DNA from: Promethearchaeia archaeon
GTDB lineage: Archaea > Asgardarchaeota > Lokiarchaeia > Sigyniarchaeales > SOKP01
Length of the DNA: 64,000 nt
Assembly: GCA_029856145.1 (NCBI GenBank)
Contig: JAHQWK010000004.1
Coordinates: 96,001 to 160,000 of the forward strand
Reading direction: 5' to 3'
The position numbers were made by a program, and so were the translations under genes. The stretch's first letter is position 1. The number at the start of each line of letters is the position of its first letter. A model generated the notes under the pieces. The model worked only from the letters and a program-made list of their open reading frames with translations. It did not search any database and was not told the origin of the DNA. This document shows, piece after piece, positions 43,993 to 59,623 of the stretch.

Positions 43993-46512
43993 TTAAGATT
44001 GTCTTTCTAATTCATCAATTTCAGCTAATAGATCTAATTTCTTTTCTTTCCATTCATTTCTCATCTTGATATCACAAAAACAGGTATGGATTGCTCTCTC
44101 TCCTTTTTGTAGACTATCCTTAGCTAAATCAAACTTACCAATTTCTTTATAGCATTTTGCCATCTGAATATATGTATTATAAGTAAACCAACCCAATGGA
44201 TCAAGATCTAATGCCTTTTGAAAGTATTTTAATGCCTCTTCATACTCGCCAAATTCAGTGAGAACTTCACCGTAAGAATCATGATAATTACCATTATCAG
44301 GCGCAAGTTTTACTAATTCCTTTGCTGCTTGCAATGATTCTTCTTTCTCATCACGATAATGATGCCAGTATACTTTATTATTTAATATATCAAAATCCTT
44401 AGGATTTTTTTCCCATAAAACATCAATAATCTCTAAGCCTTTATCATAGTTATTCCTCTTCTTATATAGAAATGCCTTATGCGTCATAAGCTTAGTTTCC
44501 ATTTCTGGAAACGCTTTTATCCCCTCATCGATGGCTGCCAAAGCTTCATCAATCTTCTCATCGCTAGCTAAAATATCATATTTCATAAAGTGTAAATGGA
44601 GATCCTTAGGATCAAGCTCAATAGCAGTTTCAATCATTTCAAAACCCTCTTCATATTTTTCTAATTGTTTTAAAATTAGACCCTTAAAATGATAATACTT
44701 CGCTTTGTTCTTGTCAATATCCTCTAGCGAAATTGCCTTATCGAGATCATGCAACACTTCATCCACTCTCATATCATCCATATCTAATTGGTAAACAATT
44801 TTATAGCCCCAAATTAACGCTCTTGTAACATAGGATAAAGGATGGTCAGAATAATATTCATTTAGTATGTCACTGATTTTAAGTGCCTCATCGAATTCAG
44901 CTAATGTTATATGACAATAAACCTTAATAAAATTATAAGGTACAAAAATTTCCTCATCTTTTCTATTTGGATAGCTCTTTAATGCATTTTTCAAAAATTT
45001 AATAGCCCTTTTATGCCTGTTTGATAAACTTAACACAATTGCTTTCAAGAACAGAAAATCCAAATTATCAGGATTATTTTCAATCTCAGAATTGATCTTA
45101 TCTAAAACATTATCAAAATCCTTTTTTTTCATTAAATGTTTGGCATCATTAAACATCTCCTCAATTTCTGGTGAAGAAAAAAATGGTAGCACCCTTAATA
45201 TTGAATAATCTACATAATACTTGAATTGAGTTTGTTCCGAATCATCAGACTGGGAGCTATTAGATTGAAATACTTCTGGAATATCTCTCCACATTACTCC
45301 TTCTAATTTATCACGGGTATCCTCTAGCTTTCTTTCAGTTTCTATTCTATAAGCTAAATGTTTGATGTATTCCGGTAGAAACTCTCTTAAAGTATCTTTT
45401 AGCTCATCATTAAATAAATTATTACAAATCTCGTCTAAAATCGCATTAACTGTAAAACTGAAATCCATTGAAGCACCTCTACTAAGATTACTTTCATACA
45501 ATTTATTTAAGTAAGTAAATTTTGTAATGTGATCTTCAGTTATTGCTGAAAGAACTTTCTCTATCTTTTCATCCTCCTGGAAATAATAAAATTTATCCTC
45601 ATCAACTTCTATATTAAAAAATTTGGTCGAGTAGATATTTTTCTCTATAATTTGACGAATATTAAATTTCAATTCCAATGAATTAATTTGATATTTCTTA
45701 GAAAAATCAGCAGGTGAAATGTAAAAGGGATACTGATTTGGATGATTCATAGACAGAAACAGTAACACTTTGTTAAAATCTTCCTCTGAATCTAAGGATC
45801 CTCTTAAATTAGCATAAGGTAGTTTCAAAACATTGTTTAAAAATCGAAACTTGATATCCTCATCCTGGATATCATATTTTTCAAAAAATATAATTGTACT
45901 TTTCGTGATTTCCTCGATTCTCTTGCTTTCCTCATTCAATATTGATTGTCGGTCTAAATCATATAACTTCAACATCCGAGAATATTCCGATTTCCCCTTT
46001 TTAGTAATTCTGTATTCCTTATTCTCTTTTCTAATAAATTCCATCTGTTGAAGCTCATTTAGATTTTTCGATAAACTGGATTGATTAATCCTTAGTGGAT
46101 CATCAATAAAATCTGACCATTTGCAAAATGTATTATTATAAACCATCCAAAGGAGCCAATGATCATAATTTCGGTCGTTTGTTATCGCTTTTGGAGGATA
46201 ATTTAAATTTCTTTCTCCGTCCTTAGCTTTTGATAGATGGTTGTATCGTTCCGTACCTTTAGAGGTTATTCTATATACTCCTCTTTCCGGCTTTTCAACA
46301 TATTCGTTCACCTTTAACGAGTTCAGGTAATAGGATAAAGTAGATTGAGGAATACTTACGGGTTCATCTAAGAAATTTGCCCATTCAACAATCTCATTAT
46401 TTTTTAACATCCATAGTATAACATGTTCTATATTTGGTCGCTCAATCCCTATTTGCCGAAAGATTTCTTCAGGTGGATAATTTATTTCTTGAGTTCTACT
46501 CATAAAATTCAC
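43993..46512 (-). CDS. Tandem winged-HTH + TPR regulator A
   Basis: Two YPP...LWM..N....W..F....I.QS.LS..LN.L...Y.IT.KG wHTH repeats plus a third degenerate one; C-terminal TPRs (YHDSYGEVL...YEEAL..FQKALDLDP). Confidence 0.88.
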   Translation of the reverse strand: MNFMSRTQEINYPPEEIFRQIGIERPNIEHVILWMLKNNEIVEWANFLDEPVSIPQSTLSYYLNSLKVNEYVEKPERGVYRITSKGTERYNHLSKAKDGERNLNYPPKAITNDRNYDHWLLWMVYNNTFCKWSDFIDDPLRINQSSLSKNLNELQQMEFIRKENKEYRITKKGKSEYSRMLKLYDLDRQSILNEESKRIEEITKSTIIFFEKYDIQDEDIKFRFLNNVLKLPYANLRGSLDSEEDFNKVLLFLSMNHPNQYPFYISPADFSKKYQINSLELKFNIRQIIEKNIYSTKFFNIEVDEDKFYYFQEDEKIEKVLSAITEDHITKFTYLNKLYESNLSRGASMDFSFTVNAILDEICNNLFNDELKDTLREFLPEYIKHLAYRIETERKLEDTRDKLEGVMWRDIPEVFQSNSSQSDDSEQTQFKYYVDYSILRVLPFFSSPEIEEMFNDAKHLMKKKDFDNVLDKINSEIENNPDNLDFLFLKAIVLSLSNRHKRAIKFLKNALKSYPNRKDEEIFVPYNFIKVYCHITLAEFDEALKISDILNEYYSDHPLSYVTRALIWGYKIVYQLDMDDMRVDEVLHDLDKAISLEDIDKNKAKYYHFKGLILKQLEKYEEGFEMIETAIELDPKDLHLHFMKYDILASDEKIDEALAAIDEGIKAFPEMETKLMTHKAFLYKKRNNYDKGLEIIDVLWEKNPKDFDILNNKVYWHHYRDEKEESLQAAKELVKLAPDNGNYHDSYGEVLTEFGEYEEALKYFQKALDLDPLGWFTYNTYIQMAKCYKEIGKFDLAKDSLQKGERAIHTCFCDIKMRNEWKEKKLDLLAEIDELERQS

Positions 46513-46564
46513 ATTATAGTACTCTATTTAATATATAGTAACAACTTCTATTTAAAAGTTTCGT

Positions 46565-46635
46565 GTTCAGTATAAAATTAGAACTCCAACTGAACTTCGA
46601 ATTACAATTGAACTTTCACGAATAAAACTATATAT
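46565..46635 (+). promoter_or_regulatory. Operator array + TATA for peptide gene A
   Basis: GAACTCCA-ac-TGAACTTC (46581-46598), second degenerate copy (46599-46616), 11-bp spacer, CTATATAT (46628-46635). Confidence 0.7.
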
Positions 46636-46701
46636 TGAACTACAAACTTATGAGTATTAAGAAAAAAACAAATAAAAAAAACAAATAAGAGGTAAAAAAT
46701 A

Positions 46702-46779
46702 ATGAAAAAAATCGCAGAAAAAATAATTATAATAAAAAGTGGTACTTCAGCGTATAATCGAACTTATATTAGTTATTAA
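46702..46779 (+). CDS. Small peptide A, 25 aa: MKKIAEKIIIIKSGTSAYNRTYISY
   Basis: GAGGT RBS, own TATA, oligo-T tract downstream; homologous to peptide B at the equivalent position. Confidence 0.72.
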   Translation: MKKIAEKIIIIKSGTSAYNRTYISY

Positions 46780-46789
46780 ATATTAAAAA

Positions 46790-46806
46790 TTTTTTTTTTA
46801 TTTTTA
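46790..46806 (+). terminator. Oligo-T terminator after peptide A
   Basis: Long T tract about 10 nt after the stop. Confidence 0.6.
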
Positions 46807-46910
46807 TGAAAAATAATCTATTGAACAATTTACGATAATTAACCGTTATTATATGATCACTAAGAGAAAACTCTTTTCCATCTCCATATTGAATATGTTT
46901 ATACGAGTTC

Positions 46911-46931
46911 GGGCGAGACTCTGACTCGCCC
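46911..46931. other. GC-rich hairpin GGGCGAG-N7-CTCGCCC
   Basis: Perfect 7-bp inverted repeat; related copy at 55209-55245. Confidence 0.6.
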
Positions 46932-46962
46932 ATAAATTATTACATTAAAAGGTTGAAAAGTT

Positions 46963-47169
46963 ATGGATATAAAAAATACAAGAATGGTTGGAAAACATCA
47001 TTGTCCTGAGTGTAATTGTATGTATATTAGAATTGATAATGAAATTATTTCTTGTCCTGGATGTGAACTATCTTCAAAAGGTAATAGATCGATCATCAAT
47101 GAAGAAGAATGCCAGGAAAGAATTAGTTCAATTTCAGATTTAAACTTCAATAAAAGTTCATGTTCTTAA
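46963..47169 (+). CDS. Small zinc-ribbon protein
   Basis: CPEC...CPGC; AGGT upstream. Confidence 0.65.
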   Translation: MDIKNTRMVGKHHCPECNCMYIRIDNEIISCPGCELSSKGNRSIINEEECQERISSISDLNFNKSSCS

Positions 47170-47234
47170 TCTATAAATAAAAAAAGTAATTTAAATATAA
47201 TAAAAAAGAAAATCAATTAAATAGGTAATTACAA

Positions 47235-48548
47235 ATGGAAGTAAAAAGCACAAAAAAATCTTATTGGCACTATATGTATTTCTTGATTGGACAACAATTC
47301 TCAATGTTAGGCTCAATGATAGTTGGTTTTGTAATAACTTGGTGGATGGCCGGTAACGTTATTTTTCTTTCAATTTCAGTGTTTTTAATGTTTCTCCCGC
47401 AAATTATTGTGACTCCACTTTCAGGTGTACTTTCGGATAGATGGAATAAAAAGGCAATAATTGCAATATCAGATTCTGGTCAAGCAGCTGCAACTCTTTT
47501 ACTGTTTGTATTTTTTCTTTTCGACATCCAAAACATCGTTTTTGTTCTCGCAATAAATACATTTAGAGCAGCATTATTTGCATTTCAACTACCAGCTGTT
47601 CAGTCTTTAGTCCCTATTATGATCCCTAAAAAAAGTCTAAGCAGGGTTAATGGAATGAACTTTTTGAGTACTGGAGTTATTTTCACTATGGGACCAATGA
47701 TAGCGGCAGGTCTTATGGCTATTTTTCCACAAACAGAACTGATCTTTCTTCTCGATATTATAACATTCCTGATTGCTATGGTCCCATTGTTAATTATCAA
47801 AATTCCTAAAGTACACCAAACTACAGAAGAAGCCGTAAAAAAGTCAATGTTTAAGGATTTCAAAACGGGACTATTAACAATCAAAATGATTCCGGGATTA
47901 TTTGCTATGATTGCTTTCGCAATGGTATGGAATTTTATTAACAGACCTTGGGCTGTTTTGCTACCTAATTTTATTTATGATACTCACGGAGGTACTGCCT
48001 TAAATCTTGCGTTATTAATGACTGTGAGTCAAGTTGGGAACATAATAGGATCTCTAATCACCTCACTTAAGAAAACGTGGAAGCATAAAATTAAAATAAA
48101 CATAATTGGAGGAGCAATATTTTTTGTATGTCAAATCCCCGCGATTCTTGCACCTCAAGGAAATTTCATTATTATGATGATATCTCTATTTCCTGCATGG
48201 GTGATTTTTCCAATTACAGTATCTACGTATTTAGCAATATTACAGACGGTTGTTTCGAAAGATAAAATTGGTAGAATTATGTCGATTGATCACATGATAT
48301 CTATGGCAATTGCTCCAATTGGAGCACTTATATCCGGGCCATTAGCATTATTAATAGGAATAAGATATTTATTTCTAATCGCTGCAATCCTTGGAGTAAT
48401 TCATCCGTTTATCATTTGGGGTTTCACGAAAATAAGACAACTTGAAGTTATAGAAAGAGAAATAGTAATGAAAGCAGATGAAGTTGCCGAAGTAGAAGAA
48501 ATCACAGAGCTTACTGAAGTTATTCAAGTTATTGAACCAATAGAATAA
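47235..48548 (+). CDS. MFS transporter (MefA/DHA3-like efflux family)
   Basis: GQQFSMLGS, GVLSDRWNKK, PA.QSL.P..IPK..LSR.NG; about 12 TM. Confidence 0.92.
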   Translation: MEVKSTKKSYWHYMYFLIGQQFSMLGSMIVGFVITWWMAGNVIFLSISVFLMFLPQIIVTPLSGVLSDRWNKKAIIAISDSGQAAATLLLFVFFLFDIQNIVFVLAINTFRAALFAFQLPAVQSLVPIMIPKKSLSRVNGMNFLSTGVIFTMGPMIAAGLMAIFPQTELIFLLDIITFLIAMVPLLIIKIPKVHQTTEEAVKKSMFKDFKTGLLTIKMIPGLFAMIAFAMVWNFINRPWAVLLPNFIYDTHGGTALNLALLMTVSQVGNIIGSLITSLKKTWKHKIKINIIGGAIFFVCQIPAILAPQGNFIIMMISLFPAWVIFPITVSTYLAILQTVVSKDKIGRIMSIDHMISMAIAPIGALISGPLALLIGIRYLFLIAAILGVIHPFIIWGFTKIRQLEVIEREIVMKADEVAEVEEITELTEVIQVIEPIE

Positions 48549-48615
48549 TTTTTTTTTATTTTAATTTTTCATTTTTATTCTTTTTATTAGTATTTTTCAA
48601 TCTTCAATCTCTCCA

Positions 48616-48668
48616 GTTCATAATAAAGTATGAACTTCATATGAAGTCCGAATCAATAGTCTATATAT
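48616..48668 (+). promoter_or_regulatory. Third copy of the operator + TATA, upstream of a wHTH gene
   Basis: GAACTTCA-ta-TGAAGTCC (48632-48649), 11 bp, CTATATAT (48661-48668). Confidence 0.8.
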
Positions 48669-48801
48669 GAATTGAAAATCTAATAAGAATAAAGAATTTT
48701 AGGTTCAAAATTCGAATCATGTAGGAATAGGCTCCTACACTGAAGAAATGTAGCCTGTCATATTCCAATATTATTAATATCAATTAAAAGAGTGGTTTAA
48801 A

Positions 48802-49746
48802 TTGTCTGAAAAATCAGAAATCGAAAAAATATTAAAAGAACGCTCTAAATTTGAAGGTCTGGAAACATCAAATTCCGAATTTGTATTTATTGATAAAGTT
48901 GTTCAAGATTATGCACCAGAAATTGCTTTTTTATATCAATTTAGGGAGGACGAATCAGAAGAACAACAGATAAAAACAGGACGCCTTCATGAAAATCGCA
49001 TCTTAGGCATAATTCTAAAATTCTATTTAGAAGGAAAGAATAAGATCACTACTGGAGAAGTAGAACAGGAATATAAAAGATATTTTAGGGAAATTGCTCG
49101 ATCAACTACTTCAACATATTTAAATATGTTAAAGAAAGAATCTACTCTCTATACAGAAAGAGATGGTAGAGTAGCTTATTATATCTTTTATGAAGATCCT
49201 CCCGTTGATATTAAACCTTTTTGGTTTACTAGAATCTTTTGTATAGTTCCAGCTTACTTTAATAGAGCAATGAAATTTTCTAGTTTATACTTTAACGCTG
49301 AGAAATTTATCCAACAGTATATCAATGATATGGGTTATGGAGATAAAGAAATTTTAATAAGAAATTTCAAATTTATTATCGGTTTAATTGTATTAAATAT
49401 TTTGAAGAATCGAAGCTCTAAATGTATTGGTTGTCAGTTTAGTAAGAGGGAAATTTATAAGAAACTGGAAGAATTGATTAATGTAGCTATTAAAGATAGG
49501 TCTGATGTTTTACCAGGAGAATTATCGGTAGATTTGATTGAAAAGCATTCAGAAATACCAATATTTAAAGGAACTAATATTAAAGAAGATGAATTTAAAG
49601 GAAATATTATTAAGGAGATAGTAAGGAGCGCTGATATATTCAAAAAAGATTTAGATTTTCAAATTATGGTATCATCTCGAAGAAAAGATTCAAGATTAAA
49701 GCAAATACAAGCTTTAGAAGAAGACAGTGCAAAATTATCTTATTAA
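48802..49746 (+). CDS. Winged-HTH protein with CxxC
   Basis: ITTGEV...IARSTTSTYLNMLKKE..L..ERDGR..YY; CIGC. Confidence 0.75.
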   Translation: MSEKSEIEKILKERSKFEGLETSNSEFVFIDKVVQDYAPEIAFLYQFREDESEEQQIKTGRLHENRILGIILKFYLEGKNKITTGEVEQEYKRYFREIARSTTSTYLNMLKKESTLYTERDGRVAYYIFYEDPPVDIKPFWFTRIFCIVPAYFNRAMKFSSLYFNAEKFIQQYINDMGYGDKEILIRNFKFIIGLIVLNILKNRSSKCIGCQFSKREIYKKLEELINVAIKDRSDVLPGELSVDLIEKHSEIPIFKGTNIKEDEFKGNIIKEIVRSADIFKKDLDFQIMVSSRRKDSRLKQIQALEEDSAKLSY

Positions 49747-49778
49747 TTTTATTTAACACTTTTTTTTAATATCTTAAG

Positions 49779-49866
49779 TAGTGAAATTTTTCGCACTATA
49801 ATCACCTTTAAATAAGATATTCAATTTTATAAAATTAGAAAGTTGTGAAAAAAAAACTCACAACTT
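49779..49866 (+). promoter_or_regulatory. Two related palindromes flanking the thioredoxin TATA box
   Basis: TAGTG-N10-CACTA (49779-49798), TTTAAATA (about 49807), AAGTTGTGA-N9-TCACAACTT (49840-49866). Confidence 0.6.
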
Positions 49867-49894
49867 AGAAAAAACAATTAAATGTGTATTTTAA

Positions 49895-50311
49895 ATGCAG
49901 AATGTAGATGATAACCTAGAAATGTTGAGAATAAAAAAAGCCGAAGCTTTATTAAAACACCAAAAAATGCCAGAAACTATAGTAGAGATACAGTCTTCAG
50001 AAGAATTTCATAAATTATTAAAGAATTACACTGACAAAACTATTATTATAGATTGTTGGGCTGTTTGGTGCGGACCTTGCATGTTTTTTGCTCCCATTTT
50101 TAAGAAACTTCATGGAGAATTTCAAAAAGATTTCGTATTTGTAAAGGTAAACGTTGATGAAAATAATGCCATAGCAAGGGAGTATGGGATAACTGGAATC
50201 CCAACGACTTTATTTATTAAAAATAAAGAAGTTATAAATCAAGTTGTTGGAGCAATGAATTATGAAGGTATGAAGCAGGTATTAATAAAATTAAAACAAT
50301 CAGATAGTTAA
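49895..50311 (+). CDS. trxA: Thioredoxin
   Basis: WAVWCGPC, KVNVDE, GIPT. Confidence 0.95.
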   Translation: MQNVDDNLEMLRIKKAEALLKHQKMPETIVEIQSSEEFHKLLKNYTDKTIIIDCWAVWCGPCMFFAPIFKKLHGEFQKDFVFVKVNVDENNAIAREYGITGIPTTLFIKNKEVINQVVGAMNYEGMKQVLIKLKQSDS

Positions 50312-50362
50312 ATAAATACCCCTTTTTATTAATTTCTTTTTAAATTTTTAAGTTGATAACTA

Positions 50363-50827
50363 ATGGAAGTAATTGGAAACCAATTAAAAGAATTTGAAAT
50401 TATAGATGAGATATTAGAAAATAAAGATATTTTTTCTAGTACACGATTATTTAAATGTATTTTAGGCCTAAATAAAACCGAATCACAGGTATTTGGATAT
50501 ATTTTAAGAAATAAAGATGTAAGTACTTCTGAAATAGCAAAAGCTCTGAAGTTGGATAGAAGTTCAATTCAAAGAGCTGTTCAAGATTTATCTGAATTAA
50601 TACTTATTAATCGTAAGTCTATATCTATGAAAGAATATTCTAAGGTGAAAGGTAAGACTAATATCAAAAGGCAAGGATATCTTTATGTTTATAATGCTAA
50701 AGATATTAAGTCAATAAAAACCCAGTTTAAAGAACTATTAGATAAATGGTACGGTTCAATGTTAAAATACATTGAGAATCTCGAGAATCTATGTGAATGT
50801 TGTGGTTTCAAATTCGAACCATGTTAA
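50363..50827 (+). CDS. TrmB-like HTH regulator with C-terminal Cys cluster
   Basis: KCILGLNKTE, EIAKALKLDRSSIQRAVQDL, GYLYVY; tail LCECCGFKFEPC. Confidence 0.85.
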   Translation: MEVIGNQLKEFEIIDEILENKDIFSSTRLFKCILGLNKTESQVFGYILRNKDVSTSEIAKALKLDRSSIQRAVQDLSELILINRKSISMKEYSKVKGKTNIKRQGYLYVYNAKDIKSIKTQFKELLDKWYGSMLKYIENLENLCECCGFKFEPC

Positions 50828-50858
50828 ATTTTTTAATAGGCTTAAGAAAAAAAGTTTT

Positions 50859-51521
50859 TTAGAACATAAAAATTACCTTGAAAGGGAGATCTTCCAATAA
50901 TTCTCTTAGTTCTTTTTTAAATTCTTCCGAAATGGGTTCAAAACCATCTAGAGTATAATTACTTACCGAATAATGATCTGGCATAACATCTAATAAGAAC
51001 TCCTTTAATTTTTCCACATTTATAACGGTATCATTTAACCCTTTCAAAAACATTGTGTAGATGCCCAACTTCCCCTTAAATTTTTTACTGAATTTCAAAA
51101 TGCCCTCTAAAACATTTTTAGGTTCTATCGATTCCGGACACTTATTAATTTTTGAAAAATGAAAGTGATCAACAGTATTAAGATTAATAGCAACCAAATC
51201 ACATCCGTTAAATACATTTCGAGCTTCCTTATCTTGAAAGATTCCACAATTTAAATAAATACCAATTTTTTGATTTGGATATATCGTCCTAATCATTTTT
51301 GTAATCAACTTAAAATTTGAATGGGTTATTGAATCTGTTATTCCCTTAAACCATATTAAACTGGGAATCCCTCGAACATTAATACAATCTCTAATTTCAT
51401 AAAAAACTTCTTCAGTAAGGTTAATTAGGCCTGAGCCTTCACAGTAAGAACTAAAATCAACTGATAAAAGTGTTCCAAAATTAAAATTAAACTCGAACGC
51501 TTTTACAAACCTGTAACCCAT
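50859..51521 (-). CDS. Degenerate radical-SAM-like protein lacking CxxxCxxC
   Basis: DLVAINLNTVD...KIN.......VLEGI..F...F.GKL...TMFLKGLND resembles COG0731/TYW1-like barrels; only YC remains. Confidence 0.6.
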   Translation of the reverse strand: MGYRFVKAFEFNFNFGTLLSVDFSSYCEGSGLINLTEEVFYEIRDCINVRGIPSLIWFKGITDSITHSNFKLITKMIRTIYPNQKIGIYLNCGIFQDKEARNVFNGCDLVAINLNTVDHFHFSKINKCPESIEPKNVLEGILKFSKKFKGKLGIYTMFLKGLNDTVINVEKLKEFLLDVMPDHYSVSNYTLDGFEPISEEFKKELRELLEDLPFKVIFMF

Positions 51522-51547
51522 TTAAACCACATTTTTTATTTGCATTA

Positions 51548-54505
51548 TTAATTATTTTTTAATTCGTCTATCAATACCTTGATTTCAGAAATCAATATCT
51601 CCGCTTTTCGTAGATAATCCTCTCTTTCACTCGGATGCATCTTTTCTGTAAATTTTTTCCCTTTTTCATAATACTCGAGTGCGTTTTCAAATTTACCAAG
51701 TTCTTTAAAACATCTTCCCATTTTTAAGCATGTCTCGAATGCAAACCAACCAGTAGGTTCAAGATTCAAAGCTTCTTTTAATTTTTCAATAGCATCTTCG
51801 TACTCTCCTAAGGACATTAATATTTCACCATATGTATCATAAACGTTTCCATAATTTGGATTAAGACTTATCAGATATTCTGCAGTCTCAATAGCTTCCT
51901 TTCTTCTCCCTAAATACCCTAATATTATGGCTTTATTGTTAATAATATTAGTATCTTGTGGGTTTAATTCAAGGGCTTTATCAACAGCTTCTAAACCTTC
52001 ATCATACTGTTTTAGATGTACATAGATAAACGATTTTTGTAAGAGAAGACTTCTTTTCAAGGAGGGGTGGCTTTCTAACAAGTCATCAATCAAATTCAAA
52101 GCTTCAGATTCTCTCTTGGACATAATCAAATTGTATGTTTTCCTAGCATATAAAGAATTCAATCCGGGAACCAATTCAATAGCCTTATCAATAGATTCAA
52201 TAGCTTCATCATGTTTTCCAAGTCCATTAAAAACGTATGCTTGAAATAAAAGATATCTTGTTTTATCATATGTAAAAGGGTCAAAAGAGATTGTAAGTTT
52301 TATTAATTCAGTAAAAGTATCAATATTTGGTTCTTTTAATGTAAATCTATAAATCAAATTATAACCAAGTACAATGGCTTTTGTGATAAATGAAATTGGA
52401 TGATCAGGATAAAGAGTTAAAACTAGATTTGCAATTTCTAAAGCTTTTTCAAATTTCCCTCTTGCTAAATATGAGTATGCTAAAATAAAATAAGCTTCTG
52501 TATCAATTCCAGGATTCTTTTTAAGGGTATTTATATCGATTTCACTTGTTATCAGTTGCTTCGCCTCTTTATATTTATAAATCTCACAATAGTAGAGACT
52601 TCTCAAAAGTAGAATTTCTTTATCGTTTGGTTTCAAGGCGATTAATTGATTTATAACATCTAAGGGATCATTATAATCCTTTACCAATGTCATCCAATGA
52701 GTAATATAAATTATGAATTTTGTTTTTAATAGAAGAGTATTATCTGGATATTGAGATAATGACTCGTTAATAAGATGGAGTGCTTTTTCTCCTTGAAACA
52801 TTCTCAACAATATTTGAGCTTTATGACTAATTAAAACAACATTAGATGATTTCTTTAGTCCTTTTTCAACATTTTCTAAAGATCTCTCATAATTGTCCAT
52901 TAAAAAGTAAGTTAATGATTGCAATAAATATCCAATATACTCCTCTGGATATTTCTCAATAATTTCATTAGTTATATCAATTGAATCATCTAATTTATTA
53001 TTCGCTGTTGTTATAATATCTTTTATAATTAACTGATTAATGGTTTTTAACTTTGTGCTATTATTCTGATATAGTTCCCTCGCTTTAGAAGCTTTATTTC
53101 TGTATAATGTTTTTACAATTTTTTTAAATAGATCTATTTTATTCAGATAATAAGTCTCCTGAACTTCTTTTGAGTTCACAAAATACAATTTTGTTAGGTG
53201 CATAATACTTAGTACGCTAAAAATACTACCATCTAAGGTATAATGATACTCATCCTCATCTCCTGCTATTGGTTTTGAAGGTTCAAAAGTTTGGAATTCC
53301 TCAAAAATATTTTGCCAAACAAATCCTTCTAATTTTGCTTCGCTATCAACTAATTTTTTCTCAGTCTCAAATTTATATGCTAAATATTTAATATATTCAG
53401 GTAAAAATGATTTTAATGAGGGCTTCAGATGTTCATGGAATAATTTATCACAAATACCATCTAAAATTTCATCTAATAACAATCCTACATCTATCGTCAG
53501 GGCTTCATGAAATTTGTTTAGATATGTAAATTTAATGATATGTTTTTCCACAATCGCATTAAGAACTTTCTCAATTGTCTCATTCTTTTGAAAATAATAA
53601 ATCCCTCCTTGTTCATCTTCTACTTTAAAAAACTTAATATCAAAAAATTCATTATCTACAATCTCTCCTATATAATAATCTAACGTAGTTTTGTCAACTT
53701 TATACTTTAATGAGAATTCTTGAGGTGAAATGAATTCGGGATAATTATCTGGATGATTAATCGAAAGGAACAACAAAATTTTATTAAAGATTTCCTCGTT
53801 TTTTAACATTGGCTCTACTTTAGAATAAGAAAACTTTAAAATATGATCAAGATATCGAAATTTCAATTCATCATCTTCAATTTTATATTTCTTGAAAAAC
53901 ATTCTAGTTTTTTCTGTTATTTCTTCAATTCTCTTACTTTCTTGTTCTAATATAGATTGACGATCCAAATCGTAAGACTTTAATATTCTTAAATACTCAT
54001 TCTTTCCCAAGGGTGTTATTATATATTCCTTGTTTTCTCTTGCTACGAATCCATCATCTATTAATGAATTTAAATTGTTAGATAAGGAGGATTGATTAAT
54101 CGATAGTGGCTCTTGTTTAAAATCTGACCATTTGCATGAATAATTATTATAAAGCATCCACAAAATCCAATGATCATAATTCCTAATTTTAGTTATTGTT
54201 TTTGGTGGATACTTTAATCTCCTCTTTCCTAATTTCTTGTCATAGACTAATTCACTAAATCTATCTCTCCCTTGTGCTGTAATTAGATACTTGCCTTTTT
54301 CAGGTTTTTCAATATAATCCTTATTCATTAGTTTATTCAAATTACCTGATAATGTTGAAGGACTTATTTCTACCTCAAAATCCGACCACTCACAAATATC
54401 ATTATTACTGAGCATCCATAGTATTACATATTCAAAATCAGTTTTTCCCATTATTGGATTTAATATCTCTCCTGGAGGATATATGATTCCTTCTGATCTA
54501 CTCAT
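51548..54505 (-). CDS. Tandem winged-HTH + TPR regulator B (paralogue of A, more TPRs)
   Basis: Same wHTH repeats (NYDHW.LWM.YNN..CKWSDF, INQSSLS, YDLDRQSIL..ESKRIEEIT); many TPRs; ends EP.GWF like A. Confidence 0.88.
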   Translation of the reverse strand: MSRSEGIIYPPGEILNPIMGKTDFEYVILWMLSNNDICEWSDFEVEISPSTLSGNLNKLMNKDYIEKPEKGKYLITAQGRDRFSELVYDKKLGKRRLKYPPKTITKIRNYDHWILWMLYNNYSCKWSDFKQEPLSINQSSLSNNLNSLIDDGFVARENKEYIITPLGKNEYLRILKSYDLDRQSILEQESKRIEEITEKTRMFFKKYKIEDDELKFRYLDHILKFSYSKVEPMLKNEEIFNKILLFLSINHPDNYPEFISPQEFSLKYKVDKTTLDYYIGEIVDNEFFDIKFFKVEDEQGGIYYFQKNETIEKVLNAIVEKHIIKFTYLNKFHEALTIDVGLLLDEILDGICDKLFHEHLKPSLKSFLPEYIKYLAYKFETEKKLVDSEAKLEGFVWQNIFEEFQTFEPSKPIAGDEDEYHYTLDGSIFSVLSIMHLTKLYFVNSKEVQETYYLNKIDLFKKIVKTLYRNKASKARELYQNNSTKLKTINQLIIKDIITTANNKLDDSIDITNEIIEKYPEEYIGYLLQSLTYFLMDNYERSLENVEKGLKKSSNVVLISHKAQILLRMFQGEKALHLINESLSQYPDNTLLLKTKFIIYITHWMTLVKDYNDPLDVINQLIALKPNDKEILLLRSLYYCEIYKYKEAKQLITSEIDINTLKKNPGIDTEAYFILAYSYLARGKFEKALEIANLVLTLYPDHPISFITKAIVLGYNLIYRFTLKEPNIDTFTELIKLTISFDPFTYDKTRYLLFQAYVFNGLGKHDEAIESIDKAIELVPGLNSLYARKTYNLIMSKRESEALNLIDDLLESHPSLKRSLLLQKSFIYVHLKQYDEGLEAVDKALELNPQDTNIINNKAIILGYLGRRKEAIETAEYLISLNPNYGNVYDTYGEILMSLGEYEDAIEKLKEALNLEPTGWFAFETCLKMGRCFKELGKFENALEYYEKGKKFTEKMHPSEREDYLRKAEILISEIKVLIDELKNN

Positions 54506-54576
54506 AATAAAACTCAGTCTTATAAGATCTTATTTTGTTACATATATATTAGTTCATCTGCTTTTTAAGCTTTTCA

Positions 54577-54629
54577 CTTCAGACTAAAGTGTGAACTTCA
54601 TGTGAAGTTCGAAGTGCGAATCTATATAT
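54577..54629 (+). promoter_or_regulatory. Operator + TATA for peptide gene B
   Basis: Perfect palindrome GAACTTCA-tg-TGAAGTTC (54593-54610), 11 bp, CTATATAT (54622-54629). Confidence 0.8.
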
Positions 54630-54684
54630 TGGAGTTCAAGTTAAATAATCATAAGAAAAAAATGAAAAAAAAGTGATAAAAAAG

Positions 54685-54768
54685 ATGGTTCAAGTATTAG
54701 AAAAGAAGTCGAGGTTGATAATTATAACGAATGATACGGACAGATATCATTCGAGATATATAACTTAG
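54685..54768 (+). CDS. Small peptide B, 27 aa: MVQVLEKKSRLIIITNDTDRYHSRYIT
   Basis: AGTGA upstream (in-frame GTG at 54673 also possible), TAG-TAA double stop, oligo-T tract; homologous to peptide A. Confidence 0.72.
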   Translation: MVQVLEKKSRLIIITNDTDRYHSRYIT

Positions 54769-54774
54769 TAAAAC

Positions 54775-54783
54775 TTTTTTTTT
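54775..54783 (+). terminator. Oligo-T terminator after peptide B
   Basis: T9 tract just after the stop. Confidence 0.55.
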
Positions 54784-54814: not shown

Positions 54815-54955
54815 ATGGTTAAAATAATGATAAATTGTAGAAAATGTGGTAAAGAGATAAAACTTGACCTGAACGACTCGACGGCGCTTTGCCGAAAGTG
54901 TCGGAAGAATCATGCTGTAATTGAGGTAACAACAACGAGGAATTTTGATTTTTAA
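54815..54955 (+). CDS. Micro zinc-ribbon protein 1 (46 aa)
   Basis: MVKIMINCRKCGKEIKLDLNDSTALCRKCRKNHAVIEVTTTRNFDF; GGAGAGTGA RBS. Confidence 0.8.
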   Translation: MVKIMINCRKCGKEIKLDLNDSTALCRKCRKNHAVIEVTTTRNFDF

Positions 54956-55017: not shown

Positions 55018-55116
55018 ATGCCAAAAAAAATAAGGATACCCTGTATGAAATGTGGTAAAGAGATAAAGTTAAATTTTACCGAATCACGGGCAATTTGTAA
55101 GGATTGTGGAAGGTAA
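55018..55116 (+). CDS. Micro zinc-ribbon protein 2 (32 aa), paralogue of protein 1
   Basis: MPKKIRIPCMKCGKEIKLNFTESRAICKDCGR; GAGGG RBS. Confidence 0.8.
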   Translation: MPKKIRIPCMKCGKEIKLNFTESRAICKDCGR

Positions 55117-55208
55117 ATTTCGAGAGATTTTTTAAATCTTTCAAATTTTTTAATTGTTTAATTATTTAATTTTTTAATTTTTTTTACGGTTCTTTTCTTT
55201 TCCATTCC

Positions 55209-55245
55209 AAATTAAGGGGCGAGAGTTTATCTCACCCTTTAATTT
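55209..55245. other. Hairpin AAATTAAGGGGCGAGA-GTTTA-TCTCACCCTTTAATTT
   Basis: 16-bp stem with two imperfect pairs; core related to 46911-46931. Confidence 0.6.
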
Positions 55246-55975: not shown

Positions 55976-57757
55976 ATGAGATATAATAATGATCATAAAT
56001 TTTTGAATTCTGCAATATGCATTGCTGTTATTCTAAATATCATTGTTTTTGGGATTTTTAGTTCTGATTTATTTATATATAGATACTCTCGTCCTTATGA
56101 TTGGAGGGTGGAAGTTCTTAAAGTACCAACAACGTCCAATCCTGTTACCATGGATCCTTGCGATTCATGGGATAGTGTATCAAATGATATACTTGATCAG
56201 GTAATAGAAACCCTAATTGCATATAATTTATCTGACCCAGAATTTCCACTTGTAGGAAGACTTGCCTCAGCTTGGGATTTCCAAAGCTCAAAATTTGGGC
56301 ATAATATAACTTTCACACTAAGACCAAATGTATATTTCCATGATGATTCATTACTTACTGGAGACGATGTTTTACATTCTTTCGCAAGAATTAATTACTT
56401 CGGTAATGCAACTGGTACCTTAACAGAGCCTGATCATATGGCTTTTCCACACTCTCTCTATAAATTTCCTGGTAAGCCTCCAGGTTTAACACCAATCTTC
56501 AATCATACCTTAAGCTTTGTTAATCCAACTGATAACTTAGAAGTTACTATTGTAATGAATGGTCCATTTGCTCCTGCTGAAGGATTATTAGCCTATGTAG
56601 CAAGTGGAATTGTACCTCTTAATTGTCCTGCAGAGGATATGTGGGAACTCGGTACGGATCTAGCCATTGGAACTGGTCCATTCAAATTAGTTAGTTATGT
56701 ACCAAATTCAGAGACTAGATTTGAGCGTTGGGATAGATATTGGGATGCTCCCGCTTATTGGGATGAAATTGTCTATGTCTATTATAGAGATGCTGTCACC
56801 GCTAATAATGCTATGTTGGCTGGAGATATTGACTACTTAGGCCAGGGTATTGCTGCACTAAAAGAATACTTTAATGCGAGTCCTTATATCACGGTAACTG
56901 GAGATGGAGTTGCTGATTTTATCAATGGTTCTATCTATTGGTATATTGCTTTTAACTCCCCTTATATAAATGTTACGTGGAGAAAAGCTATTTCATCTGC
57001 CTTTAACTATACATATCTTAACGAAGAAATAGATGAAGGCACTACTGTGAAAGCTAATTCCTTAGTTCCTCCCGGTTTTCCTGCTCATAATGCTTCATGT
57101 AAAGGTGGTGTTTTTAATATACCTTATGCTAGACTAAAAATGCAGAGCATGGGGCATGGTGTAGGATGGGACATTGGCAGTCAGGTTGGAGATATATTTA
57201 CTCCTGGTCTTGATGAAGCTCTATGGAAAGCAGCCGCATGGGTTCCAGATGTAGGTAACTTTACTGCAAATCAGTTTAATTTCCGGTTTAGACAAGGAAG
57301 TCATTGGATGGAACTCCTAATTGCTCAATTTCGAGATGATATGGACAGGATTGGAATTGAAATTAACGTGCAAATATTGACTTGGTGTGAATTCATAGAA
57401 ATGGGTGAAGGCTATCCTGACAGACTCCATATCTATCAAGTAGGTTGGGGTCCTGCTTACTTTGAAACCTTCACCATGATTGATCCATTAGTAAATCCCG
57501 CATCTTCATCAAACTTTGCTCGAATTGATAATCCTGAAATAAACACTTACTTAGCCCTTGCTGCTTCTGAAACCGATACTGCTACGAGATATGGATACTA
57601 TATGAAACTTCAGTATTTAATTATGGATAAATACTCTTACCATATGGGCATACAATTTGATAAGCTTTATCATGTTCATGCTGCTAATTTGAAAGGCGTC
57701 CCATATAATACTATGAGGAACTTATACTGGTATCCAACTTATCGCGAAACCGCATAA
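55976..57757 (+). CDS. Family 5 (OppA/DppA-like) solute-binding protein, copy 1
   Basis: PVTMDP, ETLI, LASAW, FTLRPNVYFHD, IGTGPFKL, WRKAI..AFNY; N-terminal TM. Confidence 0.92.
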   Translation: MRYNNDHKFLNSAICIAVILNIIVFGIFSSDLFIYRYSRPYDWRVEVLKVPTTSNPVTMDPCDSWDSVSNDILDQVIETLIAYNLSDPEFPLVGRLASAWDFQSSKFGHNITFTLRPNVYFHDDSLLTGDDVLHSFARINYFGNATGTLTEPDHMAFPHSLYKFPGKPPGLTPIFNHTLSFVNPTDNLEVTIVMNGPFAPAEGLLAYVASGIVPLNCPAEDMWELGTDLAIGTGPFKLVSYVPNSETRFERWDRYWDAPAYWDEIVYVYYRDAVTANNAMLAGDIDYLGQGIAALKEYFNASPYITVTGDGVADFINGSIYWYIAFNSPYINVTWRKAISSAFNYTYLNEEIDEGTTVKANSLVPPGFPAHNASCKGGVFNIPYARLKMQSMGHGVGWDIGSQVGDIFTPGLDEALWKAAAWVPDVGNFTANQFNFRFRQGSHWMELLIAQFRDDMDRIGIEINVQILTWCEFIEMGEGYPDRLHIYQVGWGPAYFETFTMIDPLVNPASSSNFARIDNPEINTYLALAASETDTATRYGYYMKLQYLIMDKYSYHMGIQFDKLYHVHAANLKGVPYNTMRNLYWYPTYRETA

Positions 57758-57808
57758 ATGAAATATAAAGAAATATAAAAAATTAAAAAAAGAATAAAGG
57801 AAGGAAAA

Positions 57809-59623
57809 ATGAAATCTGAAATGAAAGAGTTAGCGATATTTATTTTAATAATTTTAATTATTTTTTCTGGTTTCGGAAACGTTATCATGTTACTGATGTA
57901 TAGTCCTCCGCATTCTCATCCTACTTTCGAAGTACTTAAAGTAGCAAGAACTTCAAATCCAGTTACTATGGATCCATGTGATTCTTGGGATAGTGTGTCA
58001 AATGATATGCTTGATCAGGTAATGGAAACCCTCATTGCTTATAATTTATCTGACCCAGAATTTCCGCTTGTAGGAAGACTTGCCTCAGCTTGGGACTTCC
58101 AAAGCACGCCTTTAGGCACGAATATCACATTCCAATTACGACCAAATGTATATTTCCATGATGATACATTACTTACTGGAGAATGTGTTATCCATACCTT
58201 TACAAGAATAAATTTTTTTGGCAATTGGACAGGGACATTAACTGCTCCTCATCATATGGCAGCTCCACACTCTCTTTATAAATTTGCTAATGGAACACCA
58301 ATCTTTAATGAAACGCTCAGTTTTGTTAATCTAACTAACCCATTAGAAGTTACTCTTGTATTAAATGGTCCATTTGCTCCTGCTGAAGGATTACTAGCCT
58401 ATACAGCAAGTTCAATCGTACATCCTTATTCTACTCCTGTAAATGAGATGTTAGAACTCGGCGAGGATCGAGCCATAGGGACTGGTCCATTCAGATTAGT
58501 TTATTATGTACCAAATTCAGCGATTTGGTTTGATCGTTGGAAGAGATATTGGGATGGTCCCGCATATTGGGATGAAATCGTCTATGTCTACTATAGAGAT
58601 GCTGTCACCGCTAATAATGCTATGCTGCGTGGAGATATTGACTACTTAGGTCAGGGTATTGCTGCACTAAAAGAATACTTTAATGCGAGTCCTTATATCA
58701 CGGTAACTGGAGATGGAGTTCATGATTACATCAACGGGGCTACTTATAACTGTATTGTATTTAAATCAGAATGGATCAATCGTACATGGAGAAAGGCGAT
58801 TTGTCATGCTTATAACTATTCCTATCTTATCCATAATATCATGGAAGACACAGTTGTGAGAGCTAATTCTTTAGTCCCTCCAGGTATCCCGGGTCATAAC
58901 AGTTCAGTTGTAGGTGGTACGTTCAATATTACAAAAGCAAGACAGATTATGCAGAGCATGGGTTATGGTTATACGGATAATGTTCCTTGGGACGTAGGAT
59001 CTCAGGTTGGAGATGTGTTCACCCCTGGTGCTAATGAAACTCTATGGAAAGCAGCAGAATTTATACCAAACGTAGGAAACTTCTCTGGTAATGTATGGAA
59101 TTTCTATGTAAAACCAGGAAGCCTTTTATTGGAATTTCTAACTCAACGCTTTATAGAGGATATGGATTTAATTGGAATTAAGGTAGAATATTATTGGTAC
59201 TGGTGGGCTGAATGGCCGATACCACTATGGTGGTGGAAAGGAATCCATTTATGTTGGTTGAGTAAATATCCTAATTATTATGAAGCTTTTAATATGATTG
59301 ATTCATTAGTCAACCCAGATTCTACCCTTTATTCCGAAACTTTAAATATACTTGATTCAATAGTCGACCCAGCATCTACCCTCAATATCCTTAAAATTAA
59401 CAATACAGAAATAAATACTCTTTTAGCTACTACTGTAGCTGAAACTAGTACTGCTACAAGATATGAATACTATAAGAAACTTCAATATTTAATTCATGAT
59501 AAGTACTACTACCATATGCCTCTGTTTTATGACAAGCTCTACTATGTTCATGCTGCCACCTTGAAAGGATTTCCATATAATTGTATGAGGAATTTATACT
59601 GGTATCCAACTTATCGTGATTAA
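57809..59623 (+). CDS. Family 5 (OppA/DppA-like) solute-binding protein, copy 2
   Basis: Same motifs; tandem paralogue. Confidence 0.92.
   Translation: MKSEMKELAIFILIILIIFSGFGNVIMLLMYSPPHSHPTFEVLKVARTSNPVTMDPCDSWDSVSNDMLDQVMETLIAYNLSDPEFPLVGRLASAWDFQSTPLGTNITFQLRPNVYFHDDTLLTGECVIHTFTRINFFGNWTGTLTAPHHMAAPHSLYKFANGTPIFNETLSFVNLTNPLEVTLVLNGPFAPAEGLLAYTASSIVHPYSTPVNEMLELGEDRAIGTGPFRLVYYVPNSAIWFDRWKRYWDGPAYWDEIVYVYYRDAVTANNAMLRGDIDYLGQGIAALKEYFNASPYITVTGDGVHDYINGATYNCIVFKSEWINRTWRKAICHAYNYSYLIHNIMEDTVVRANSLVPPGIPGHNSSVVGGTFNITKARQIMQSMGYGYTDNVPWDVGSQVGDVFTPGANETLWKAAEFIPNVGNFSGNVWNFYVKPGSLLLEFLTQRFIEDMDLIGIKVEYYWYWWAEWPIPLWWWKGIHLCWLSKYPNYYEAFNMIDSLVNPDSTLYSETLNILDSIVDPASTLNILKINNTEINTLLATTVAETSTATRYEYYKKLQYLIHDKYYYHMPLFYDKLYYVHAATLKGFPYNCMRNLYWYPTYRD

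Follow-up and report, generated by a model that had tools for sequence, protein, structure and literature searches.

The window, i.e., the whole 64,000-nt stretch of DNA analyzed here, encodes two large regulators on its minus strand. Regulator A (43993..46503) has 836 aa when translated from its ATG and 839 aa when begun at the GTG at 46512, and regulator B (51548..54505) has 985 aa, with the same architecture and a longer TPR array. The two proteins are 37% identical over 806 aligned residues, with ~55% identity in the first ~390 aa vs 32% in the TPR part, and Pfam matches to wHTH and TPR domains were obtained for both. In the AlphaFold model of regulator A (pLDDT 84), winged helices at ~25-80, 113-166, and 264-309 are followed by a helical middle region and a canonical TPR array (~445-835). 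An earlier, sequence-only reading had described A and B as paralogues with tandem N-terminal wHTH domains and C-terminal TPR arrays, which is confirmed except that the winged helices number three, not two. The wHTH part matches BldR/MarR/PadR structures (Z 9.8, rmsd 2.2, 78 aligned), and the TPR part of A matches OGT, APC/C, and TTC7. The N-terminal 415 aa gave zero Foldseek matches at E<=0.001, and in the ESM Atlas all matches of A residues 1-410, and of the 70-aa and 314-aa proteins described below, were <0.9. Residues K710 and D742 of the TPR groove are nearly or fully invariant, so the TPR array likely has some polypeptide ligand. A T-C-F-C motif, a possible redox or metal site, is kept near the C-terminus of A-clade regulators (window 44000-44100). 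A radical-SAM-like gene lacking CxxxCxxC and scoring under the Pfam cut-off (window 50859-51521) lies directly downstream of B-clade regulators in several or many genomes.

Divergent to each regulator, on the plus strand, lies a cassette that had been described as consisting of operator, CTATATAT, RBS, micro-ORF, oligo-T, zinc-ribbon gene, and hairpin. Every element is present at both loci, and the micro-ORFs do start 190 bp (from the GTG of A) and 180 bp (B) away from the regulators. At locus A, the A-type operator (46581..46616), which is composed of repeated GAA(C/G)T half-sites and kept in 21 A loci, is followed 11 bp past the operator element by the TATA box CTATATAT of the divergent promoter (46628..46635), an RBS (46688), micro-ORF A (46702..46779; 25 aa, basic, with an IIII-x-S core and a Y-x3-YI-x-Y tail), and an oligo-T stretch (46790-46799). 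Further 3' are a conserved non-coding TTTTCCAT-TCCA motif with a GGGCGAG hairpin (46874..46931; hairpin at 46911, 7-bp stem, 7-nt loop), the gene of a 68-aa C4 zinc-ribbon micro-protein that is kept in A cassettes (46963..47169), and an MFS transporter gene (47235..48548), a common downstream neighbor of A cassettes. At locus B, the operator (54576..54615) is a palindrome, TGAACTTCA-N2-TGAAGT, with outer half-sites and is kept in 25 B loci; the TATA box CTATATAT (54622..54629) again lies 11 bp past the operator element, ahead of micro-ORF B (54685..54768; 27 aa) and its oligo-T (54775-54783). Two C4 zinc-ribbon micro-proteins of 46 aa (54815..54955; dN/dS 0.30) and 32 aa (55018..55116; dN/dS 0.10) and a second TTTTCCAT-TCCA motif with GGGCGAG hairpin (55198..55237; hairpin at 55217) follow. 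The GGGCGAG hairpin shows compensatory and G-U changes with 97.6% pairing, and the element probably forms an RNA hairpin; Rfam gave no convincing match to it. The TTTTCCAT-TCCA motif is complementary to ATGGAAA-type start regions, and motif and hairpin together could possibly be a small RNA or a translational control element. That the zinc ribbons mimic TFB is no more than a guess, as TFIIB, RPAB4, and HypA models match them only below cut-off. At 55976-59623, the window encodes two solute-binding proteins of class 5 (Opp/Dpp type) in tandem, with no permease genes next to them. As dedicated importers they were rejected, being not conserved beside B in the flanks compared.

The window's genome encodes seven full paralogues and one fragment of these regulators; most have about 630 aa, and the family spans 630-1000 aa. 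All genomes of the genus sample (24/24) carry 2-10 matches each, and in the phylum sample matches were found in 57/68 genomes of the family vs 1/232 outside, with one more match in a sister family. The regulator family is, across these samples, nearly confined to one Lokiarchaeia family, and this family-level range (57/68) replaces a genus-specific one. When 122 N-terminal halves were placed in a tree, with a midpoint root solely for display, they fell into groups A, B, D, H, I, E, F, G, and J. As the sequence-only reading had anticipated, small ORFs are conserved beside other family members: they lie beside 20/28 A, 13-14/30 B, 24/34 D, and 1/21 H regulators, and beside none of the clade I, E, F, G, and J regulators. 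The D loci have 1-3 peptides each, of at least six types, while 16-17/30 B loci have none and still encode full-length regulators. The idea of one cognate peptide per receptor finds no support in these D loci, in the many peptide-less B loci, or in clades E, F, G, I, and J. The divergent slot contains the 70-85 aa protein described below, zinc ribbons, up to three peptides, or secreted proteins, and in clades E, F, G, and J mostly unrelated secreted or membrane proteins; judging from this gene content, it is an exchangeable cargo site. In the slot of H-clade loci (L001, L032, L060, L062, L066) we observed a purine-rich conserved stretch with a GAGAGCTC...GAGCTC inverted repeat, a candidate non-coding RNA or very short Gly/Arg-rich ORF. 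Past the cassette of D, H, and some E loci (e.g., L027, L064, L001), the divergent strand very often encodes a Rab-like small GTPase.

A search for an RBS, an ORF of 18-34 aa, and an oligo-T returned 33 cassettes in 97 kb of regulator-divergent DNA. The opposite strand had 0, shuffles gave 0.1, and the whole genome held 22, which amounts to a density of 0.34 per kb beside regulators vs 0.003 per kb genome-wide (~110-fold). With the 99th shuffle percentile as threshold, 13/13 B peptides are recognized by the A peptide profile and 18/20 A peptides by the B profile, and about 30% of the D peptides are recognized by the A/B profiles. The purifying selection expected in the sequence-only reading was found, with pooled pairwise dN/dS (from pairs that are not independent) of 0.22 for B, 0.23 for A2, and 0.20 for D1 peptides, all with excess change at third codon positions, 0.42 for D3, 0.67 for A1 (the A type of the window), 0.88 for D5, and 0.10-0.30 for the zinc ribbons. 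Enrichment beside regulators, A-B homology, and purifying selection all mark the micro-ORFs as real but unannotated genes. The oligo-T after each stop, the conserved hairpin nearby, and the weak dN/dS values of A1 and D5 would fit leader or attenuator peptides, or by-products of a functional RNA, whose sequence is irrelevant. We consider this extremely improbable in view of the low dN/dS of the B, A2, and D1 peptides (0.20-0.23), the protein-level homology across paralogues, and the orphan peptide genes that have no co-oriented gene directly downstream. The previously proposed peptide motif, (I/L)III-x3-T-x2-Y-x3-YI, matches only 3/33 A/B peptides; in the common pattern, a basic start leads into an Ile-rich strand of four residues, then x-N, and the tail is aromatic. 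The net charge of the family peptides is +1 to +9. The D3 peptides (24-30 aa; L027:1114-1203, L164:2543-2626, and other D loci) share x-[TS]-L-x-D-[FY]-[FLV] and a G-x-K-D-L tail. The former resembles a PIP box minus Gln, and the FEN1-like protein of the window's genome has a similar C-terminal motif; the latter also closes a ~90-aa protein at G000 C23:97350.

In most relatives, the first gene past the promoter encodes a 70-85 aa protein and the peptide gene is second. The 70-85 aa gene occurs at A, B, H, and I loci and in 86/134 family genomes, and the B-type 70-aa protein shares the IIII stretch with the peptide. At both window loci this gene is deleted and the peptide gene kept, and one copy survives elsewhere in the window's genome. 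At locus A, the 82-aa gene that precedes the peptide in relatives is gone. Micro-ORF B is a deletion chimera, in which the 7 initial codons from the lost 70-aa gene are fused to the peptide gene and the conserved terminal Tyr codon is now a stop. Compared with these relatives, the window loci are evidently a derived case of the module.

The operators are conserved and lie directly upstream of BRE/TATA at fixed spacing. Contrary to the shared operator that had been suggested for the two regulators, the A matrix scores 59.6 on the A site and 12.5 on the B site, and the B matrix scores 88.5 on the B site and 10.9 on the A site; the two operators have GAA(C/G)T half-sites in common and differ in layout. 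Operators also recur away from regulators. In the window, an orphan B-type operator with TATA (48631..48668, plus strand; B-matrix score 60.7) precedes the gene of the 314-aa wHTH protein (48802..49746, plus strand), which by site position would be a second target of the B operator, and whose gene, in other genomes, lies divergent to B-clade regulators as their cargo. Orphan D-type operators precede a lone 23-aa peptide on contig C15 and a small-gene cluster on contig C26, and orphan F-type operators precede several secreted or membrane proteins. The cluster (L186; G000 C26:59900-61600, minus strand), where the D-type operator stands without a regulator ahead of ORFs of 93, 57, and 19 aa, also encodes a ubiquitin-like protein of 110 aa and two peptides of 27-31 aa that are similar to the C-terminus of the 70-aa protein. 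For A regulators without an adjoining cassette, a displaced 82-aa gene with peptide was found in four genomes, and a displaced cassette without this peptide type in two more. A-type peptides remain with the operator even in moved cassettes.

RRNPP receptors have one XRE-type HTH. The module resembles RRNPP(A) systems, especially Rgg/SHP and ComR/ComS, in its N-terminal DNA-binding domain, its C-terminal TPR, and the adjacent divergent small ORF with a strong RBS under the regulator's operator. It differs from them in regulators of 630-1000 aa with three MarR/PadR-type winged helices and OGT/APC-like canonical TPRs, and in basic hydrophilic peptides without an export region, of which there are several or zero per receptor. 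Five features serve as RRNPP criteria: a peptide of 10-100 aa, Sec/SHP-like hydrophobicity, a receptor of 250-500 aa, TPRs in it, and gene adjacency (PMC10075063). The window peptides have 25 and 27 aa, are led by an RBS, and are under selection; A and B carry TPRs; and receptor and peptide genes adjoin in the window, and in relatives only at part of the A, B, and D loci. The receptors, however, have 836 and 985 aa, and the best 10-residue hydropathy of the window peptides is 1.32 and 0.45. By this proxy for an export region (threshold 2.0), 0/79 family peptides reach 2.0 vs 29/31 control cargo leaders. Because two of the five features are lacking, we do not file the module as RRNPP, from which its DNA-binding fold also sets it apart, although it may work like one. 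The Foldseek and NCBIfam matches listed for the receptor are generic TPR families and structures. No RRNPP receptor is among the best 50 Foldseek matches of full-length A, and no Rgg model is among the NCBIfam matches listed, both of which are compatible with kinship. The literature searched, with most subscription papers outside its scope, holds no description of this module or of any archaeal RRNPP-like system.

The lack of an export region also bears on the proposal that the peptide is exported, processed, re-imported via Opp/Dpp, and bound by the neighboring TPR. The divergent layout, the small selected ORFs of several peptide types, the MFS gene after A cassettes, and the genome's pair of oligopeptide ABC ATPases and its seven binding proteins of class 5, two of these beside B, would fit such cell-to-cell signaling. 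It is nonetheless improbable, since a hydrophobic region is present in all RRNPPA propeptides (PMC9765709), the peptides here are charged and hydrophilic, several peptides share one receptor while many receptors have none, and Opp/Dpp-type importers are common in prokaryotes. Were the peptides antimicrobials or RiPP precursors that are secreted once the regulator induces them, their short, cationic, and variable arrays, the MFS gene downstream of A, and the radical-SAM-like gene after regulator B in many genomes could be accounted for; the peptides, however, have no leader or export motif, the radical-SAM-like gene lacks CxxxCxxC and scores under the Pfam cut-off, and there is no conserved modifying enzyme or peptide exporter, so we regard this as very unlikely.

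We examined whether peptide and TPR types vary together. D regulators have a TPR identity of up to 75% with different peptides and only 53% with a shared type, and once overall relatedness is removed, the residual TPR-peptide co-variation in clade D is about 0. The C-terminal TPRs of peptide-bearing D and peptide-free E/F/G regulators are 50-55% identical, compared with 57% within D, and their groove motifs are common to these clades. The TPRs of A and B share only about 32% identity with those of every other clade. Clade A contains two TPR groups, A1 and A2, whose TPR distance is 2.7 times the N-terminal distance and which match the peptide type in 19/20 loci, i.e., a single event with one counter-example; the two loci whose peptides are odd sit on long TPR branches. 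A natural mismatch, in G014, pairs an A1-type TPR with an A2 peptide. The fast divergence of the TPR half noted earlier is seen in A/B, but it is non-specific as ligand evidence because the TPR half outpaces the N-terminal half in peptide-free clades too (ratio 1.2-1.7). A complex prediction that paired peptide B (in the 31-aa frame opened by an upstream GTG) with residues 405-985 of B scored 0.00, which weighs neither way. The A1/A2 match, the odd-peptide loci, the distinct A and B TPRs, the homology of the A and B peptides, and the survival of the peptide where the longer gene is lost would all suit an intracellular feedback, resembling RRNPP minus secretion, in which the peptide or the 70-85 aa protein binds its own TPR in the cytoplasm and damps or locks the response. 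The absence of co-variation in D, the full-length regulators at the more than half of B loci that are peptide-less, and the same groove in peptide-free clades make this feedback rather unlikely. Taken broadly, a Firmicute-independent, multi-channel peptide-TPR signaling in Asgard archaea, with cognate 20-30 aa peptides bound by wHTH-TPR regulators in the cell or, less likely, between cells, is a tentative possibility.

The reading that we favor, with slightly better than even confidence, is that the regulators are activators that induce micro-protein effectors in response to another polypeptide cue, sensed by the TPR. A and B would be members of a Lokiarchaeia-family expansion of one-component transcription regulators, whose tandem winged helices are predicted to bind, right before TATA/BRE, an operator particular to each paralogue. 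From the operator position, with operator conservation as an observation, the regulator most likely activates the divergent promoter. The cargo at A, B, and D would be cytoplasmic micro-protein arrays comprising the 70-85 aa protein, basic peptides of 20-30 aa, and zinc ribbons; these may be the regulon output and could perhaps act as motif binders or inhibitors of other cell proteins in stress or infection, while the TPR array would sense a polypeptide cue other than the neighboring peptide. We favor this reading because the cargo varies under one architecture, D TPRs resemble those of peptide-free clades, operators recur away from regulators ahead of peptides and other genes, TPR and peptide types do not co-vary in D, and no peptide has an export region. 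The A1/A2 split that matches peptide type, the A-type peptides that remain with the operator in moved cassettes, the near-invariant groove residues, and the retention of the peptide where the longer gene is lost argue against it.

Ptr2, TFB-RF1, and EarA are small archaeal activators without a TPR sensor. They bind just upstream of BRE/TATA (PMC5512572). The module is like them in that its operator abuts TATA at fixed spacing with a divergent target, and unlike them in its TPR sensor and in that activation is here deduced from position alone. BrxR/CapW-type proteins are defense-linked divergent wHTH regulators with a WYL sensor; the module shares with them a wHTH regulator facing exchangeable cargo, with distant homologues facing an NYN RNase and once viperin, and differs in having a TPR in place of WYL, in being probable activators, and in window cargo without known defense function. 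In Haloferax volcanii, micro-proteins that consist of a single zinc-finger domain have been linked to stress adaptation (PMC6562870). The window proteins are similarly C4 zinc ribbons under 70 aa, a likeness of type, but are clustered with non-zinc peptides under a dedicated operator. Asgard gene regulation is almost uncharted, and the module adds a defined family of regulators, for which operators and regulons are inferred, as well as at least eight families of 20-90 aa proteins missed by gene callers. Should the peptides be ligands, the module would be the first archaeal peptide-TPR signaling circuit found in the literature searched; should they be effectors, it would be an inducible micro-protein response with distant relatives facing RNase and viperin, and relevant to the way in which Asgard archaea turn on their antiviral genes. 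The module is amenable to tests with synthetic peptides and purified protein.

A profile search returned 235 distant representatives, and the distant homologues checked keep the TPR tail and have a divergent gene 130-210 bp away. In at least nine distant loci, the divergent gene encodes a Zc3h12a-like NYN RNase (NYN-facing loci: L300:953-5299, L309, L302, L305-L308, L310, L311, L323, L052). Viperin follows NYN in one operon type (L300/L301/L309; 266.6 bits, NCBIfam cut-off 180), and an HD protein is next in another. Lokiarchaeal viperins are antiviral in E. coli (PMC11291487), and the NYN and viperin operon is a candidate regulated antiviral operon in Lokiarchaeia. The distant cargo is a lead, not proof, for a stress or infection response; the tree with distant relatives is unrooted, and the ancestral cargo is not readable from it. 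For the favored reading of micro-protein effectors, a link to defense drawn from distant branches and one viperin operon type appears weak, and PADLOC returned weak HTH matches only. Other distant loci have a ubiquitin-like protein or a 70-82 aa zinc ribbon in the divergent slot, and in L313-L321 a 576-aa single-wHTH branch faces a conserved 70-82 aa zinc-ribbon gene in nine genomes.
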